This document shows, in pieces, positions 39,237-49,413 of a stretch of DNA of 64,000 nt (positions within the stretch are counted from its first letter, which is position 1; every line of letters starts with the position of its first letter). The notes under the pieces are model-generated. The model saw only the letters and a program-made list of their open reading frames with translations, searched no databases and had not been told where the DNA came from. A program made the position numbers and the translations under genes. Source of the stretch: Oceanispirochaeta sp. (GTDB lineage Bacteria > Spirochaetota > Spirochaetia > DSM-2461); assembly GCA_963666275.2 (NCBI GenBank), contig CAXXOA010000002.1, positions 1,088,001-1,152,000 on the forward strand, in the 5' to 3' direction.

Positions 39237-39296
39237 TCTTTTTATTCAGAAAAAAAATTACATAGAATGAATCCTATTCAGGATCAGGAGGAAATT

Positions 39297-39704
39297 ATGA
39301 GTACACAGCATACAATTCTTGTTCAGGGGGCCGTCTTTTATGCCTACCACGGGGCAACCCCGGAACAGATTAAACAGGGACAGCGCTTTATTATCGATGC
39401 CGAAGTCAGTTCGGACATGAGCAAGGCCTGTCAGGATGATTCGGTGGAAGGGATTGTGAATTACCCTGAAATTTTCAAAATCATTGAAGATATCACGACC
39501 AATGAAAGATTCAATCTCATGCAGAAACTGGCATTGAGGATTATTGAAAAAATTAAAAGTGATTTCCCCGATGTCAGCAGAATCAGTCTTTCCGCCAGAA
39601 AAGCCATGTGTCCTTTCTACCGTGACTGCAAAACAGTACCGGGCGGAGGCGGTTTTATTACAGATAACGGCGGATGCGGCGTGACTCTGGTTCGGAATTT
39701 CTAA
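39297..39704 (+). CDS. folB: dihydroneopterin aldolase (FolB)-like T-fold protein 1, divergent active site
   Basis: FYAYHG...GQRFIID, VNY, FNLMQKLA, ARK; start ATG 39297 after AGGAGG. Confidence 0.82.
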   Translation: MSTQHTILVQGAVFYAYHGATPEQIKQGQRFIIDAEVSSDMSKACQDDSVEGIVNYPEIFKIIEDITTNERFNLMQKLALRIIEKIKSDFPDVSRISLSARKAMCPFYRDCKTVPGGGGFITDNGGCGVTLVRNF

Positions 39705-39728
39705 TCAAATATAGAGGGGAAATAGAAT

Positions 39729-40097
39729 ATGAAAAATTATGATATACTGAAATCAAACGGGATGATGTTCTGGGGAAACCATGGTCTGACCGAAGAGCAG
39801 AATGTAATGGGAACCAAATTTGTCGTAGACATTGAAGTGACCCTGGATATGTCAAATCAGTTTGCGGAAGATCAGCTGAGCAGCGGCCTTACCTATACGG
39901 ATCTTTATCTGATTACACAGCAGGTTGTGACTCAGGAGCATTATAAAACCATACAGAGAGTGGCTCAGAGAATTACCGATGAGATTAAAAACACCTCAAA
40001 AACACCCATCGAAGGTGTATCTGTCACTGTAAAAGAGCAGTTTCCCGCTATTCCGGGGTCCAATGTTGAATACATAGGTTTTACTCTGAACAGTTAA
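39729..40097 (+). CDS. folB: FolB-like T-fold protein 2, divergent active site
   Basis: FWGNHG...GTKFVVD, LTY, KTIQRVAQRI, PAIPG...GF. Confidence 0.78.
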   Translation: MKNYDILKSNGMMFWGNHGLTEEQNVMGTKFVVDIEVTLDMSNQFAEDQLSSGLTYTDLYLITQQVVTQEHYKTIQRVAQRITDEIKNTSKTPIEGVSVTVKEQFPAIPGSNVEYIGFTLNS

Positions 40098-44699: not shown

Positions 44700-45692
44700 T
44701 CAGGACAGAAGAATCTTTATAAATTCCTCTGTTGAAAGATTCTTGAAATAGTAATCCATATCCAGACCCTTCAGGGCTTCCGCAAGAGCATCTTCTCTGA
44801 GGGCGGTTCCTTCCAGGGCGTCTTCCAGCGGGGAGATATCATCAGCCCCGAAGTAGTCTCCCCGGACGGCGAAGTCGGTCAGAACTCCCTTTTTTATCTC
44901 CAGGAATACCTGGATTTTTCCGCAGCCCTCAACCCGCCGTTCTTTGCGGATGCTGTGGGCGGGGGAGCGTCCGAAGTTCCATTCCCAGCTTTCATACCGG
45001 GCCTGGAGCTCTCTGATACCCTCTCTGTCGTCTTCTGTCAGGGTATAGGATTTGAGACTATGCTCTCTGGTCATAAACTCACGGAGAACCTCCAGAAACC
45101 GGGATGTTTCCATATCTTCCGTCAGGTAGGGTCTGATATTGGTAACCCGGCTTCTGACCGATTTTACCCCTTTGGACTCAATTTTATCTTTAGATACTTT
45201 CAGGGCTTTTGAAACAATAGACAGATCCGAATCAAAGAGGAGGGTTCCGTGGTGCATCACCCGGTTGGCCCGGACGTACTGGGCATTGCCTGAAAATTTC
45301 CTGCCGTCGATTAAAATATCGTTCCGGCCGCTGATTTCTGCATCCACATTCAGGTGTTTCAGGGATTTCACAACGGGAACGCAGAAAGCCGCCAGATCCA
45401 CTTTGGCGTTTTTAGGAGCATTCCGGATAAATGTGTAGTTCAGGTTCCCCAGGTCGTGATAGACCGCCCCTCCGCCGGAGAGGCGGCGGACCACTTTGAC
45501 TCCCTGCTCTTCCGTGTAGGGAACATTGACCTCTTCTATGGTGTTCTGGTTCTTTCCGACGATCACGGCGTTGTCATTCTGCCAGAGCATAAAGTATTCA
45601 TTCTCCCGGGGGAGCTTTGTAAATACATACTCCTCCAGAGCCAGATTGTAATGGGGGTTCGTGCTGTCGCTTTCTATATAGAGCATGGGCAT
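44700..45692 (-). CDS. lplA: lipoate-protein ligase A
   Basis: NLALEEY, VGKNQN, RRLSGGGAVYHDLGN, GRNDI, KFSGNAQ, HHGTLLF, KSVRSRV, WEWNFG. Confidence 0.93.
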   Translation of the reverse strand: MPMLYIESDSTNPHYNLALEEYVFTKLPRENEYFMLWQNDNAVIVGKNQNTIEEVNVPYTEEQGVKVVRRLSGGGAVYHDLGNLNYTFIRNAPKNAKVDLAAFCVPVVKSLKHLNVDAEISGRNDILIDGRKFSGNAQYVRANRVMHHGTLLFDSDLSIVSKALKVSKDKIESKGVKSVRSRVTNIRPYLTEDMETSRFLEVLREFMTREHSLKSYTLTEDDREGIRELQARYESWEWNFGRSPAHSIRKERRVEGCGKIQVFLEIKKGVLTDFAVRGDYFGADDISPLEDALEGTALREDALAEALKGLDMDYYFKNLSTEEFIKILLS

Positions 45693-45778
45693 GGTTTTTA
45701 CCTCTTTCAAATCTACAGTTGGTCTATATCATAGTTCAAAACTCAGGTTTCGGCAAAGAGCCGGGACCCGAGTCTTTT

Positions 45779-46708
45779 TTATCCCGCACACTTCTCGTAG
45801 AAATCCCGGTAGCAGATCCTCTCCTCTGAACTGACCGCAGCCATGGCTTCCCGGGGGTGCTGGTTGAGCAGGCCCGAAACGCCGTAGGGAATCCGGTAGC
45901 CCCACTTGTAGCGTCCCATCAGGGGTTCAATGTAGCCCTGAATGGCATTGACCACAGAGGCTATATTGCTCTTTGCCGGGTCTATCAGGGGGAGCAGCAG
46001 CTCCAGAGGCGTATTGCCGGCCCCCCGGCCCATTCCGTAGTAGGAGGCGTCAATATACTCAGCTCCCGCATCCATAGCCGCCAGGCTGTTGGCCAGGGCC
46101 ATCTGAATATTGTTATGGCCGTGGAATCCCAGCTTCATATCCGGGCAGTTTTCCCTGTATGTTTCCAGGCGGCTTCGGATGTCATGAGGAAGAAAAGAGC
46201 CGAAGGAATCGGCCAGGTAAACACCCTCGGCTGTGGTACCGTTGACCCTGTTCAGGCACTGGCGCACCACTTCGGGATCGCTGGCAGACACAGCCATGAT
46301 GTTGAAGAAGGTTGTGTATCCCAGCTGATGCAGATAGTCCGAGAGTTCTATGGCTTCATCAATCTGATGAACATAGCAGGCCAGTCGGACCATGTCGATC
46401 ACAGAGTCTTCGGCAGGGATAAAATCCTCTTTGAAGCAGCGTCCGATATCTGCCATGACAGCAATTTTCATGAATCCCGGCTTTGCTGTGATCACCTTTC
46501 TCAGATCTTCCTCCCGGCAGAAACGCCAGGGGCCGTGGTCTGCAGGGGAAAAGACTTTCGGGCTGACCCTGTAGCCCATCTCCATCACATCCACACCCGC
46601 TTCCAGATTGGCCTGATACACGGCTCTGACGGCCTCCAGGGAAAACTCCCAGTTGTTCATGAGCCCCCCGTCCCGGATTGTACAGTCAATTACCTGAACC
46701 TTCTTCAT
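45779..46708 (-). CDS. DRE-TIM metallolyase, 4-hydroxy-2-oxovalerate-aldolase-like (HMGL-like) protein
   Basis: DCTIRDGG, ADSFGS, GFHGHNN, GMGRGAGN motifs; GGGGAGG RBS. Confidence 0.87.
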   Translation of the reverse strand: MKKVQVIDCTIRDGGLMNNWEFSLEAVRAVYQANLEAGVDVMEMGYRVSPKVFSPADHGPWRFCREEDLRKVITAKPGFMKIAVMADIGRCFKEDFIPAEDSVIDMVRLACYVHQIDEAIELSDYLHQLGYTTFFNIMAVSASDPEVVRQCLNRVNGTTAEGVYLADSFGSFLPHDIRSRLETYRENCPDMKLGFHGHNNIQMALANSLAAMDAGAEYIDASYYGMGRGAGNTPLELLLPLIDPAKSNIASVVNAIQGYIEPLMGRYKWGYRIPYGVSGLLNQHPREAMAAVSSEERICYRDFYEKCAG

Positions 46709-46807
46709 CTCTTTTCCTCCCCAGGTCAGTTTCGGATTTTCCTTTTTCCTCCCTTCTCCAGGGAGGATTCACCCTCTCCTGCAGGAGGCCGTAAAAGAAA
46801 AAGAGCC

Positions 46808-46850
46808 AAAAAAAAGACCCGGGATTCAGCAGAACTGCTTCCCGGGTCTT
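46808..46850 (-). terminator. attenuator intrinsic terminator upstream of the aldolase gene
   Basis: On the minus strand: AAGACCCGGGA-AGCAGTTCTGCTGAA-TCCCGGGTCTT followed by a U-tract. Confidence 0.85.
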
Positions 46851-46870
46851 CATAACCTTTCTTACTCTGG

Positions 46871-46972
46871 TTATCGCTTCTTTTTAAGCGTTACAAGACC
46901 CGGGCGTCTAAAATAAAAATAGAAACCGAAAAAAGAGAAAAAGAAATTTTCTGCCCAAGTCTTGTTATTCAT
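46871..46972 (-). CDS. Phe-rich attenuator leader peptide (33 aa), not in the ORF track
   Basis: Hand translation MNNKTWAENFFFSFFGFYFYFRRPGLVTLKKKR*: 8 Phe and 2 Tyr within 12 codons, plus 1 Trp. It contains CCCGGGTCTT (46895-46904), complementary to the terminator 5' arm. Confidence 0.8.
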   Translation of the reverse strand: MNNKTWAENFFFSFFGFYFYFRRPGLVTLKKKR

Positions 46973-46982
46973 TTGTTTTACT

Positions 46983-47012
46983 ACTCTATAGCAGGGAACG
47001 GATCTGTGTCAA
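46983..47012 (-). promoter_or_regulatory. putative sigma70 promoter for the leader/aldolase transcript
   Basis: Minus strand TTGACA (47012-47007) then TATAGA (16 bp spacer) or TAGAGT (18 bp spacer), just upstream of the leader ATG. Confidence 0.55.
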
Positions 47013-47099: not shown

Positions 47100-49127
47100 C
47101 TAGATGCTTTTTCTTACCATTTTCTCAAGATCCCCGGGAATCGGTTCATGCATGATCTCTTTCCAGGCTTTAAGAAGCTGTTTGGGTTTGATCGTGTAGG
47201 GCTGAACTGCAATGTATTTGTATGTATCATTGCTTACAAGGGATTTTGCCACAGCCAGAGCGGTGGCCTGTCCCTGTTCGTAGGGCTTCTGGGTACTGAG
47301 GCCCATAATCATCTGTTTTCTTGCCATATAGGAAGCAACGGCATAGTCCAGGTCGCAGGTGAAAATGGAAATATCCGTCCTGTTCATTTCCTCCAGAGCT
47401 TTGATAGCCGAGAGGGCAGGCTGATCCCAGGATATATAGAGGGCTTCGATTTCAGGGTGGCGGGTGATCAGCTTTTTGCAGACATCGTAGGTGTGTTCTA
47501 TTTTCCCGAAGGATTCTATGCCCATGATTTCAATATTGCCATAGCTCTCCCGGATGACTCTTTCCGCCGAAGAGTCTCTGAGATGGGTTCCGTAAAACTG
47601 GGTTCCGTGGATAAGGAATCCCACTTTGGGGCTGGCTTTGTGCTTCAGGTATTCTCCCAGGAGAATACCTGCATTGGTTCCGTTCTCCTTTTCATTGACA
47701 GAAACACAGGATACATAATCATCTTTTGCGAGTCCTTCGGGGATATTACTCATAAAAACAAGTTTTGTAGACTTTGCCAGTTCCTTGAATTTCTCCGCTG
47801 TGTATTTATCATCTGTCGGAATCGCAATCAGAGCATCCGGTTTCTGCATCTGTATCGCTTCCAGCTGGGTTAGCTGAAGGGCCGGATCAAACTGGGCATC
47901 CATGACGGAAACCACAGAGATTCCGTAATTGCCCAATGTATTTTTTATGGCATCTTCATGCAGTCTGGTCCAGGCATTTCCCCCGTAGTGAAAGGATATG
48001 GCTACCCGGAAGTTGCCCTCCCGAAGAGTCTTTTTTTCTCTTTCCGACAGGGATATGCCGTCAGGAGCAACGGCTTTTTCTCCAAAGGGGCCCCAACCTA
48101 TCATCCTGGTGGACTTTCTGATTATCAATTCCATATCAATTTCAACATCCGATTGCTGTTCTGCATTATCAGGATCAGGCTCCGGATTCACCACTCTCTC
48201 CACAGCTTTCCGGGCAATCAGCTGGGAATTGTGGCGTAAAACAGTTATGGGCGGTGTGGACATTTCGCACCAGGTACTATCGGCAATCCCTATGATTGAC
48301 AGATCCTGGGGACACTCCTTACCAATGTTCTGAAGGGTTTTCAGGGCGCTGTAAGTAAGGTTGTTTTCGCAGGCAATGATGGCAGAGGGCTGGAATTTTT
48401 CGTAAATCATCTGAATCTGATGTTCCATCTCCTCTTCTGTACTGTTTTTTTCCAGCTGCAGGATCAGAGCTGTTCTGTAGAAAATTTTGTTGTCCTTCAG
48501 TGACTTCTTGTATCCGGAGATTTTTTCGGAGACACAGAAGGGGTTATCTTTCTGGACAAACAGGGCTATTGTCCGGTGGTTGCTGTTGATAAGGTGCTGC
48601 GTCGCGTTGTATACGGCTTTGTGGTAGGAGGAGTACACATAGGGGGTGGAAAAGTTGGCAATTTTTCTCTCAATACAGACAAAGGGAATCCGTGTTTTGG
48701 CTATTTTCTTATAGTATTTGCCATTATCACTGGCAGGGGCCAGGATGATCCCGGCCGTATTTTTATCCGCTACAATACGCTGGAGGATTATTTTCTCCTG
48801 TTCGATATTGTCGTTGGTCAAGTGAACAGACAGATGATACCCGGCCTTCACAAGGAGGGTATTCAGATGAGAGGTAATCTCTATATTCAGAGAACTGGTT
48901 AAATCGGGGATGATCAGAACAATCACAGAATCTTTTCCAACCATCAGGGACTCTGCTATGTCCTTCTGTTTGATGACATAGCCGGTGGCTTCAATCGCAT
49001 CCTGTACTTTTTTAACCAGTTCCGGTCCCACGTATCTTGTTTTATTTATTACATGAGAAACAGTGGCAATAGAAACATTCGCCTGTTCTGCCACATCTTT
49101 CACAGTAGTTTTCTTATTTCTGTTCAT
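47100..49127 (-). CDS. LacI-family regulator fused to an extra C-terminal sugar-binding (PBP type 1) domain
   Basis: TVKDVAEQANVSIATVSHVIN HTH, LacI effector domain ending ELIIRKST, then a second ~300 aa RbsB-like domain; start set at ATG 49127. Confidence 0.87.
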   Translation of the reverse strand: MNRNKKTTVKDVAEQANVSIATVSHVINKTRYVGPELVKKVQDAIEATGYVIKQKDIAESLMVGKDSVIVLIIPDLTSSLNIEITSHLNTLLVKAGYHLSVHLTNDNIEQEKIILQRIVADKNTAGIILAPASDNGKYYKKIAKTRIPFVCIERKIANFSTPYVYSSYHKAVYNATQHLINSNHRTIALFVQKDNPFCVSEKISGYKKSLKDNKIFYRTALILQLEKNSTEEEMEHQIQMIYEKFQPSAIIACENNLTYSALKTLQNIGKECPQDLSIIGIADSTWCEMSTPPITVLRHNSQLIARKAVERVVNPEPDPDNAEQQSDVEIDMELIIRKSTRMIGWGPFGEKAVAPDGISLSEREKKTLREGNFRVAISFHYGGNAWTRLHEDAIKNTLGNYGISVVSVMDAQFDPALQLTQLEAIQMQKPDALIAIPTDDKYTAEKFKELAKSTKLVFMSNIPEGLAKDDYVSCVSVNEKENGTNAGILLGEYLKHKASPKVGFLIHGTQFYGTHLRDSSAERVIRESYGNIEIMGIESFGKIEHTYDVCKKLITRHPEIEALYISWDQPALSAIKALEEMNRTDISIFTCDLDYAVASYMARKQMIMGLSTQKPYEQGQATALAVAKSLVSNDTYKYIAVQPYTIKPKQLLKAWKEIMHEPIPGDLEKMVRKSI

Positions 49128-49146
49128 CTTTTCTGTCTCATTTTTA

Positions 49147-49413
49147 TTTACGTAAAAAACCTTCAGTAAGAATAGCATTTCAGTTTCTTAAGGTCAAAAT
49201 ATTACTGAAAAATCGGAAATTCGGGATTTTTACATAAAAAAATAGCTCCCACTCAGATAGCTTTTTTGAGGAATTATACAGTAGAATATAGGTGTATTCA
49301 AACATAAAACAGTGAATTTACGTAAATAATATTAAACAATCCGTTAAAATCTTAATTTTTGAATAAAAAAACTTGACAGATAGGATACTGTGGTTTAATT
49401 TTACGTAAAATTA
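49147..49413. promoter_or_regulatory. three copies of the palindrome TTTACGTAAA (candidate LacI operators) plus a promoter
   Basis: 49147-49156, 49316-49327 (ATTTACGTAAAT) and 49396-49413 (TAATTTTACGTAAAATTA, perfect 18-mer); TTGACA at 49373. Confidence 0.75.

Follow-up and report, generated by a model that had tools for sequence, protein, structure and literature searches.

The DNA examined here, a window of 64,000 nucleotides from the genome of an Oceanispirochaeta species, encodes on its minus strand a 309-residue DRE-TIM metallo-aldolase (positions 45779..46708) that is assigned by profiles, motif and fold to a short 'RDGGL' subfamily. The gene has a Shine-Dalgarno site, GGAGG, at 46716..46720 and is preceded on the same strand by a promoter, an aromatic leader open reading frame and an intrinsic terminator. 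Its flanking genes encode a LacI fusion and a lipoate-protein ligase, with no acylating acetaldehyde dehydrogenase among the local genes, which bears out the statement of the first-pass annotation that no DmpF/MhpF partner is nearby. The lipoate ligase gene (44700-45756, minus strand) has a promoter-like site of its own (45756-45728) and is not a neighbour at loci L003-L007, so it probably lies outside the attenuated unit. On the other side (47100-49178, minus strand), the 692-residue product joins a LacI-family repressor to a second sugar-binding domain, and its gene is transcribed divergently from an operon with sugar ABC transporter and glycosidase-like genes. Elsewhere, at 39267-40097 of the plus strand, two tandem short open reading frames look, by eye, like dihydroneopterin aldolase (FolB). 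A Logan contig is identical to the whole stretch (0 differences) and may be its source.

Promoter, leader reading frame and probable attenuator

The sigma-70-type promoter (46983..47012, minus strand, as are all features of this section within the window) consists of TTGACA at 47012-47007 and a -10 element that is either TAGAGT (46988-46983) or TATAGA (46990-46985), from which transcription would start near 46976. The leader reading frame (46871..46972) has 33 codons, with 8 Phe, 2 Tyr and 1 Trp in the translation already quoted by the first-pass annotation; all 8 Phe and both Tyr fall within the 12 regulatory codons 10-21 (46910..46945). No Shine-Dalgarno site is found at its ATG, and TTGACA begins just 40 nt away, an arrangement that points to leaderless translation, probably with the ATG at the 5' end of the transcript. 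Such a concentration of aromatic codons is not due to chance, since among the 50,619 ATG-started reading frames of 15-45 codons in this 5.27-Mb genome just two have at least nine F/Y/W within 12 codons; these are the aldolase leader and the leader of pheST, and each stands before a terminator.

Folding predicts the three classical states of an attenuator. Segment 1, the protector arm (46953..46965), is predicted to pair with segment 2 (46893..46905) if the leader is untranslated, giving a helix of 13 bp (46965-46953 with 46905-46893). The alternative partner of segment 2 is segment 3, in a predicted antiterminator of 10 bp (46904-46895 with 46850-46841; folded segment, -28 kcal/mol). Segment 3 is shared with the predicted terminator, which it forms with segment 4 (46808..46851; stem 46851-46840/46824-46813, -27 kcal/mol) and which carries a T8 tract at 46815-46808. 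In the predicted folds, the 1:2, 2:3 and 3:4 helices, to which this U-tract is added, are mutually exclusive. A geometric model, in which the ribosome covers 12 nt beyond the stalled codon, leaves all 10 antiterminator pairs when stalling occurs at codons 6-19, 7 at codon 20, 4 at codon 21 and none at codon 22 or later; in the model, stalling frees segment 2 and passage of the ribosome blocks it. The promoter hexamer, leader, terminator and antiterminator pairing all lie where the first-pass annotation had placed them, but the GTAAC/GTTAT extension that it gave to the antiterminator is replaced in the minimum-free-energy fold by two small inner hairpins. The protector helix, and the closeness of the leader ATG to TTGACA without a Shine-Dalgarno site, are additions to that annotation.

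In its leader of cognate codons, exclusive helices and intrinsic terminator, the element resembles pheL (pheA), pheM (pheST) and trpL, as well as uORFC-13-1 of Acholeplasma, reported as a Phe uORF with a terminator before aroF (PMC8632094). Unlike pheL, pheM and trpL, the spirochaete leaders mostly lack a Shine-Dalgarno site, are probably leaderless and carry a mixed Phe/Tyr(/Trp) run, the controlled gene belongs to no known pathway, and the window's own leader falls short of the threshold of the Rfam Phe_leader family (RF01859), to which it is a weak match (20.1 bits against a gathering score of 55, E 0.87). The element is very probably a ribosome-mediated transcription attenuator, a kind already known, in which charged Phe- and Tyr-tRNA would lead to termination and uncharged tRNA to read-through. 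The first-pass annotation called pheL/trpL-type logic established; the comparison of nine loci and of other cognate leaders, described below, supports that logic, but as a prediction, and the word was too strong.

The host genome contains further leaders in which the amino acid fits the gene: Phe before pheST, Leu before leuA and Ala before a PLP aminotransferase. The pheST leader (L035:2882-3040, C2:537881, plus strand), with 11 Phe and 1 Tyr, an antiterminator and a terminator, is like that of E. coli pheM, but it is near-leaderless, with 39 nt from TTGACA to the start codon. Near-leaderless, too, are a Leu-rich leader with a terminator (L236:213-293, C1:2533712, plus strand), which precedes a short leuA without a regulatory domain, and an Ala7 leader with a terminator (L235:235-318, C1:1244834, plus strand), which precedes a gene for a PRK06855-type PLP aminotransferase. 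The last of these is likely to be an alanine attenuator, in which case the aminotransferase would be an alanine-forming transaminase. A looser scan of the host genome gave 26 candidate leaders, most of them with no evident link to the gene, and none before either of the canonical DAHP synthase genes.

The nearest homologues of the aldolase belong to the Spirochaetia, and the same leader design stands before eight orthologues, as the first-pass annotation had led one to expect. Leader and terminator precede all five homologues of 66-80% identity, in differing gene neighbourhoods, and three more, of 49-58% identity, have divergent leaders with Trp within the aromatic run; among the 127 other loci scanned, leader and terminator occur at 8, plus one weak, chance-like match. 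The aldolase leaders contain 4-8 Phe, 2-4 Tyr and 0-2 Trp. The 2:3 and 3:4 folds are predicted for 9/9 leaders, two of which have different helix sequences, and TTGACA is invariant in the six that were aligned. Its distance from the start codon is 36-40 nt in seven of the nine; in the other two, where translation would begin at TTG, it is 57-58 nt. As the CCCGGG core is invariant in the leader alignment, covariation cannot be drawn from it. A related contig differs from the window at 4 of 175 nt in the leader and at 154 of 869 in the gene. The Oceanispirochaeta orthologue (L007:4001-4931) has an intact leader and a frame change near residue 150, which reflects either a pseudogene or an assembly error, and was omitted for this reason from a tree of 63 sequences (31 core sequences and 32 picked from the rest). 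The eight leader-bearing genes placed in that tree form a single clade (UFBoot 100), according to which the leader arose once. Distribution is patchy, with the aldolase gene found in none of seven genomes of the same genus.

The RDGGL subfamily and its genetic context

DRE-TIM proteins are TIM barrels with an Arg-Asp motif, a Glu and a His-x-His. The sole Pfam match of the aldolase is to PF00682 (HMGL-like), above cut-off; it is not a canonical class I or class II DAHP synthase, as the PF00793 and PF01474 domains are absent. The best curated profiles are those of 4-hydroxy-2-oxovalerate (HOA)-type aldolase, at 130.5 bits against a cut-off of 286 for TIGR03217 and 145.3 against 229 for NF006049, and the protein lies below every curated cut-off. 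The His that follows RDGS in HOA aldolase has a catalytic role; Leu16 aligns with it, and Leu, Ile or Cys occupies the position in 158 of 158 short-form sequences. HOA aldolases (DmpG/BphI/MhpE; 1NVM, 4LRS) are the best characterised fold match, alike in the DRE-TIM fold, Arg-Asp and His-x-His, but the aldolase has no match to the DmpG communication domain, and an acylating acetaldehyde dehydrogenase recurs as a neighbour at none of 127 short-form loci. The description 'HOA-like class II aldolase' in the first-pass annotation holds as far as the superfamily and the nearest profiles go; HOA aldolase itself, of the DmpG type, is excluded by the profile cut-offs, the replaced His and the lack of an adjacent dehydrogenase.

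The short form has conserved residues of its own. R12, D13, E43, H196, H198, W61, D87, R108 and Y112 are invariant in all 158 sequences, R228, H284 and P285 are present in 157, and position 90 is always Arg or Lys; W61, D87, Y112, R228 and H284-P285 distinguish it from HOA aldolase. With metal and enolate residues thus intact, we infer that these proteins would be active metal aldolases with an anionic acceptor. In both sequence and fold, the nearest solved protein, ahead of the HOA aldolases, is BVU_2661 (PDB 3DXI; E 2e-42, TM 0.81, 30% identity), which shares R228 and a C-terminal WG motif and has no assigned function. A Claisen-type synthase using acetyl-CoA, which, like LeuA, would elongate an aryl 2-oxoacid towards phenylpyruvate, belongs to the same superfamily, and isopropylmalate and homocitrate synthase profiles do match weakly; their scores of at most 73 bits against 145 for the HOA profile, best folds that are aldolases and the lack of a recurring isomerase or dehydrogenase partner among the neighbours make this highly improbable.

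Relatives number 6,594 among 8,000 scored at E 1e-40, related forms included, and appear in databases as 'aldolase catalytic domain-containing protein', HOA aldolase or 'nucleoid-structuring protein H-NS'. Proteins of the RDGGY type, which have R228 and the WG motif in common with the short form, are often longer and carry fused cytidylyltransferase, HAD or MptE-like domains; in the tree they stand apart from the short RDGGL type, which is the one tied to aromatic genes. Among more distant relatives, fusions to HAD phosphatase and cytidylyltransferase domains occur. These two activities recall the layout of ulosonate-phosphate pathways such as that of Kdo, and by analogy this suggests that the wider family may replace PEP-dependent ulosonate-phosphate synthases. 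The short form itself ranges over spirochaetes, gut and sediment anaerobes, Paenibacillus, Arcobacter-like bacteria and euglenids. Tandem duplicates of about 720 residues (P0121, P0122, P0124-P0126) occur in Euglena gracilis, E. mutabilis, Eutreptiella, Artemidia and an Oxyrrhis transcriptome, with a second copy in which His-x-His is often altered. One study states that the set of shikimate pathway genes is complete in euglenids and diplonemids (PMC7052976), and the euglenid literature gave no sign of a DAHP synthase gap. No short form was found in 201 genomes of one further phylum, in a search run without a positive control, and viral contigs gave no match with a single-protein query and 20 loci, two of them short form, with an alignment query. 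Comparative surveys of attenuation have reportedly been made by the Lyubetsky group; abstract-level coverage of mostly open-access literature yielded no description of the RDGGL subfamily or of spirochaete aromatic attenuators.

Gene neighbours were counted at the 127 short-form loci, many of which are kin and some incomplete. The commonest is a chorismate-mutase-like gene (small AroQ/PchB-like), directly upstream in 25 of them and 4-50 nt away in the 19 measured, with catalytic Arg/Lys invariant. A class II DAHP synthase is adjacent at three loci, a class I-alpha enzyme lies directly downstream at two and aroC lies upstream at one. Loci with aromatic neighbours fall on four separate branches, taken, by similarity to named proteins, for Bacteroidota, Campylobacterota and Bacillota. 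By a rough estimate (about a dozen aromatic genes in about 4,000), four such adjacencies are unlikely to have arisen by chance. One Logan record of 1,058 residues joins TrpE(G) (TIGR01815, 792 bits against 739) to an RDGGL domain and may represent a recent fusion or a lost stop codon. A KDPG-type aldolase is adjacent at 17-18 of the 127 loci, and neither an aromatic neighbour nor a leader is found at 88. No mutase-aldolase fusion appeared at E 1e-10 among 7,999 scored, which is weak evidence. A 1,300-nt scan found no aromatic leader before the mutase-linked loci, and an Rfam search for T-box or riboswitch control at 12 loci of other lineages gave just one M-box and one tRNA.

This context bears on two alternatives. 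A step at or after the chorismate branch, in the Phe/Tyr arm or in arylpyruvate chemistry, or a partnership with the small chorismate mutase, would fit that commonest neighbour, with its intact catalytic residues, and the Phe and Tyr of the conserved codon run. We nevertheless regard it as quite unlikely: the 25 mutase-linked loci form a single clade, the host lacks an AroQ-type mutase and has a complete Phe/Tyr branch, and the TrpE(G) fusion, together with DAHP synthase and aroC as neighbours, indicates a place further upstream. These branches are not known to include an aldol step. The other alternative is an unrelated function, such as that of a sugar-acid aldolase, of which an ancestral spirochaete copy captured an aromatic attenuator. 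A leader that arose once, the majority of loci without aromatic context, distant relatives that adjoin sugar-nucleotide-type genes and the dispensability of the gene within its genus all favour such a capture. It is made very doubtful by a leader that is kept across genes 49-80% identical and is better conserved than the gene, and by the four other branches and the fusion, which independently indicate the same pathway.

Canonical DAHP synthases and the entry to the shikimate pathway

Two canonical DAHP synthases are encoded by the host, an AroF (I-beta)-prephenate dehydratase fusion and an AroFGH (I-alpha) enzyme, and its canonical pathway is complete, with aroB, aroE, aroC, an AroH mutase, tyrA and a motif-level aroA candidate; no AroQ-type mutase was found, and the AroH type rules out a missing chorismate mutase. 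The fusion has 634 residues (L036:6447-8351, C2, minus strand), and open frames of 594-736 residues round the same match in most spirochaete genomes examined suggest that it is common in this group. A survey of the class found the short form in 22 of 251 genomes and a long fused form in four. Replacement of DAHP synthase by the aldolase is excluded in the host by the two canonical enzymes, and a canonical synthase scores above cut-off in 24/24 other spirochaete carriers tested, so the aldolase gene is an accessory in spirochaetes. The anticorrelation with canonical DAHP synthases that the first-pass annotation envisaged accordingly fails in this group.

The situation differs in the phylum of genome G254, sampled as 201 large high-GC genomes (90% completeness requested) and tentatively taken for Myxococcota; 33 of these genomes carry the short form. 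Ten of these carriers have no class II synthase and, in a class I search at E 1e-20 (except for G254), either no class I match (2) or a single match with a motif that we take to mark KDO8P synthase (8). Nine of the ten have aroB (one below cut-off), eight have aroC and seven have both, so that aroB and aroC occur without a DAHP synthase in 7/33 carriers, as against 0/24 in spirochaetes and a background of 4/46. Four aroB loci that were read have the customary pilMNOPQ surroundings and contain no DAHP synthase, and three gap genomes have the KDPG-type neighbour. An archaeal-type ADH route does not explain the gap, as type II DHQ synthase was found in 0/17 genomes. Nine of the ten gap genomes are represented in the tree, and all nine belong to the clade that is sister to the leader-bearing genes (UFBoot 98), where they are spread over four subclades; the gap occurs in 9 of 19 sister-clade genomes tested and in none of 11 other carriers of the phylum. 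The remaining 23 carriers keep a canonical enzyme, one of them merely as a degenerate I-beta copy. At L208 (G542:C199), a I-beta-like DAHP synthase lacks the active-site Lys-Pro-Arg, in a genome that also has the short form.

As controls, 46 of the 168 non-carriers were chosen in list order and judged by a match-length rule, with 12 motif checks that corrected three matches. Six lack a DAHP synthase, and aroB, sought in 16 of the 46, has a counterpart in four of those six, two of them below cut-off. The gap controls have no short form: the homologue in G463 is of the RDGGY type, which removes it as a carrier, and G460 and G486 have true HOA-type motifs. Since six of 46 controls also lack the enzyme, the gap is partly due to assemblies that are incomplete or to some other enzyme. 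By Fisher's test, p is 0.035 for 9/33 against 4/46 and 0.003 for 8/19 against 4/46, both overstated by kinship and assembly gaps, the latter with a grouping chosen after the tree was seen.

Some role of the aldolase in the supply of aromatic amino acids is likely, given the conservation at nine loci, the cognate leaders, four kinds of aromatic neighbour, the fusion and the sister-clade gap; on this point the first-pass annotation has gained ground. Links to Trp, Phe/Tyr and common-step genes argue for a function upstream of chorismate, where the sole aldol step is the formation of DAHP, and it is this that leads to the DAHP-forming reading. In essence, a shortage of aromatic amino acids would induce the enzyme through attenuation by ribosome stalling, and the enzyme would join pyruvate, instead of PEP, to erythrose 4-phosphate to give DAHP, the first compound of the shikimate pathway. 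We put the probability of such a starvation-induced, DAHP-forming aldolase at about one in two. In spirochaetes, it would provide an extra, PEP-sparing entry beside two unattenuated canonical synthases, and some members of the sister clade would depend on it alone to enter the pathway.

KDPGal aldolase is a Schiff-base enzyme, unlike the metal-dependent RDGGL type. An evolved form, selected in DAHP-synthase-deficient E. coli, makes DAHP, which shows that this pyruvate route can work in vivo (PMC2431125). With the canonical synthases (I-alpha, I-beta and II), the RDGGL aldolase would have the product in common, but its substrate would be pyruvate, no phosphate would be released and the reaction would be reversible. 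The main objections to a DAHP-forming role lie here: the canonical synthases with which it coexists are irreversible, a reversible aldolase could cleave the DAHP that they make, and the KDPG-type neighbour is left without an explanation.

These same points can be turned into an auxiliary of the early shikimate pathway that is not its entry step. Such an enzyme would break down 2-keto-3-deoxy sugar acids that are incorrect or metabolic dead ends (the DAHP epimer, dephosphorylated DAH or longer analogues), returning erythrose 4-phosphate and pyruvate, or would raise precursor supply, perhaps together with the KDPG-type aldolase. Aldolases work in both directions, canonical synthases co-occur with it in all 24 spirochaete carriers and adjoin it at 5/127 loci, and the KDPG-type neighbour would find a place. 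On the other hand, this would leave unexplained the seven genomes in which aroB and aroC occur without a DAHP synthase, and repair enzymes would seldom be expected under end-product attenuation; an auxiliary of this kind seems unlikely.

What the locus presents, as far as its sequence and those of its relatives allow, is an attenuator that is real and conserved and belongs to a known kind; the gene behind it encodes a member of an orphan enzyme subfamily that independent comparisons tie to the early shikimate pathway. Returning to the DAHP-forming reading, it is a tentative proposition, at slightly less than even odds, that the short RDGGL proteins constitute a third natural class of DAHP-forming enzymes, pyruvate-using and not homologous to the other two, serving as sole shikimate entry in some lineages and as an attenuator-controlled reserve in spirochaetes. 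AroG/AroB are listed as missing in 14 of 2,856 gut genomes in one study (PMC9026213), and the main text of GapMind 2026 makes no mention of DAHP, AroG, aldolase or HMGL (PMC13759103). If the proposal is true, the DAHP synthase gap would be closed in otherwise intact shikimate pathways, and predictions of aromatic auxotrophy would change. A function would be found for the thousands of proteins that databases list under HOA aldolase or even under 'nucleoid-structuring protein H-NS'. Near-leaderless amino acid attenuators in free-living spirochaetes may also be used more generally to read off gene function. Above all, a new natural class of shikimate entry enzyme would have been found, and with it a natural, pyruvate-based source of DAHP of the kind that engineers evolved artificially to spare PEP.
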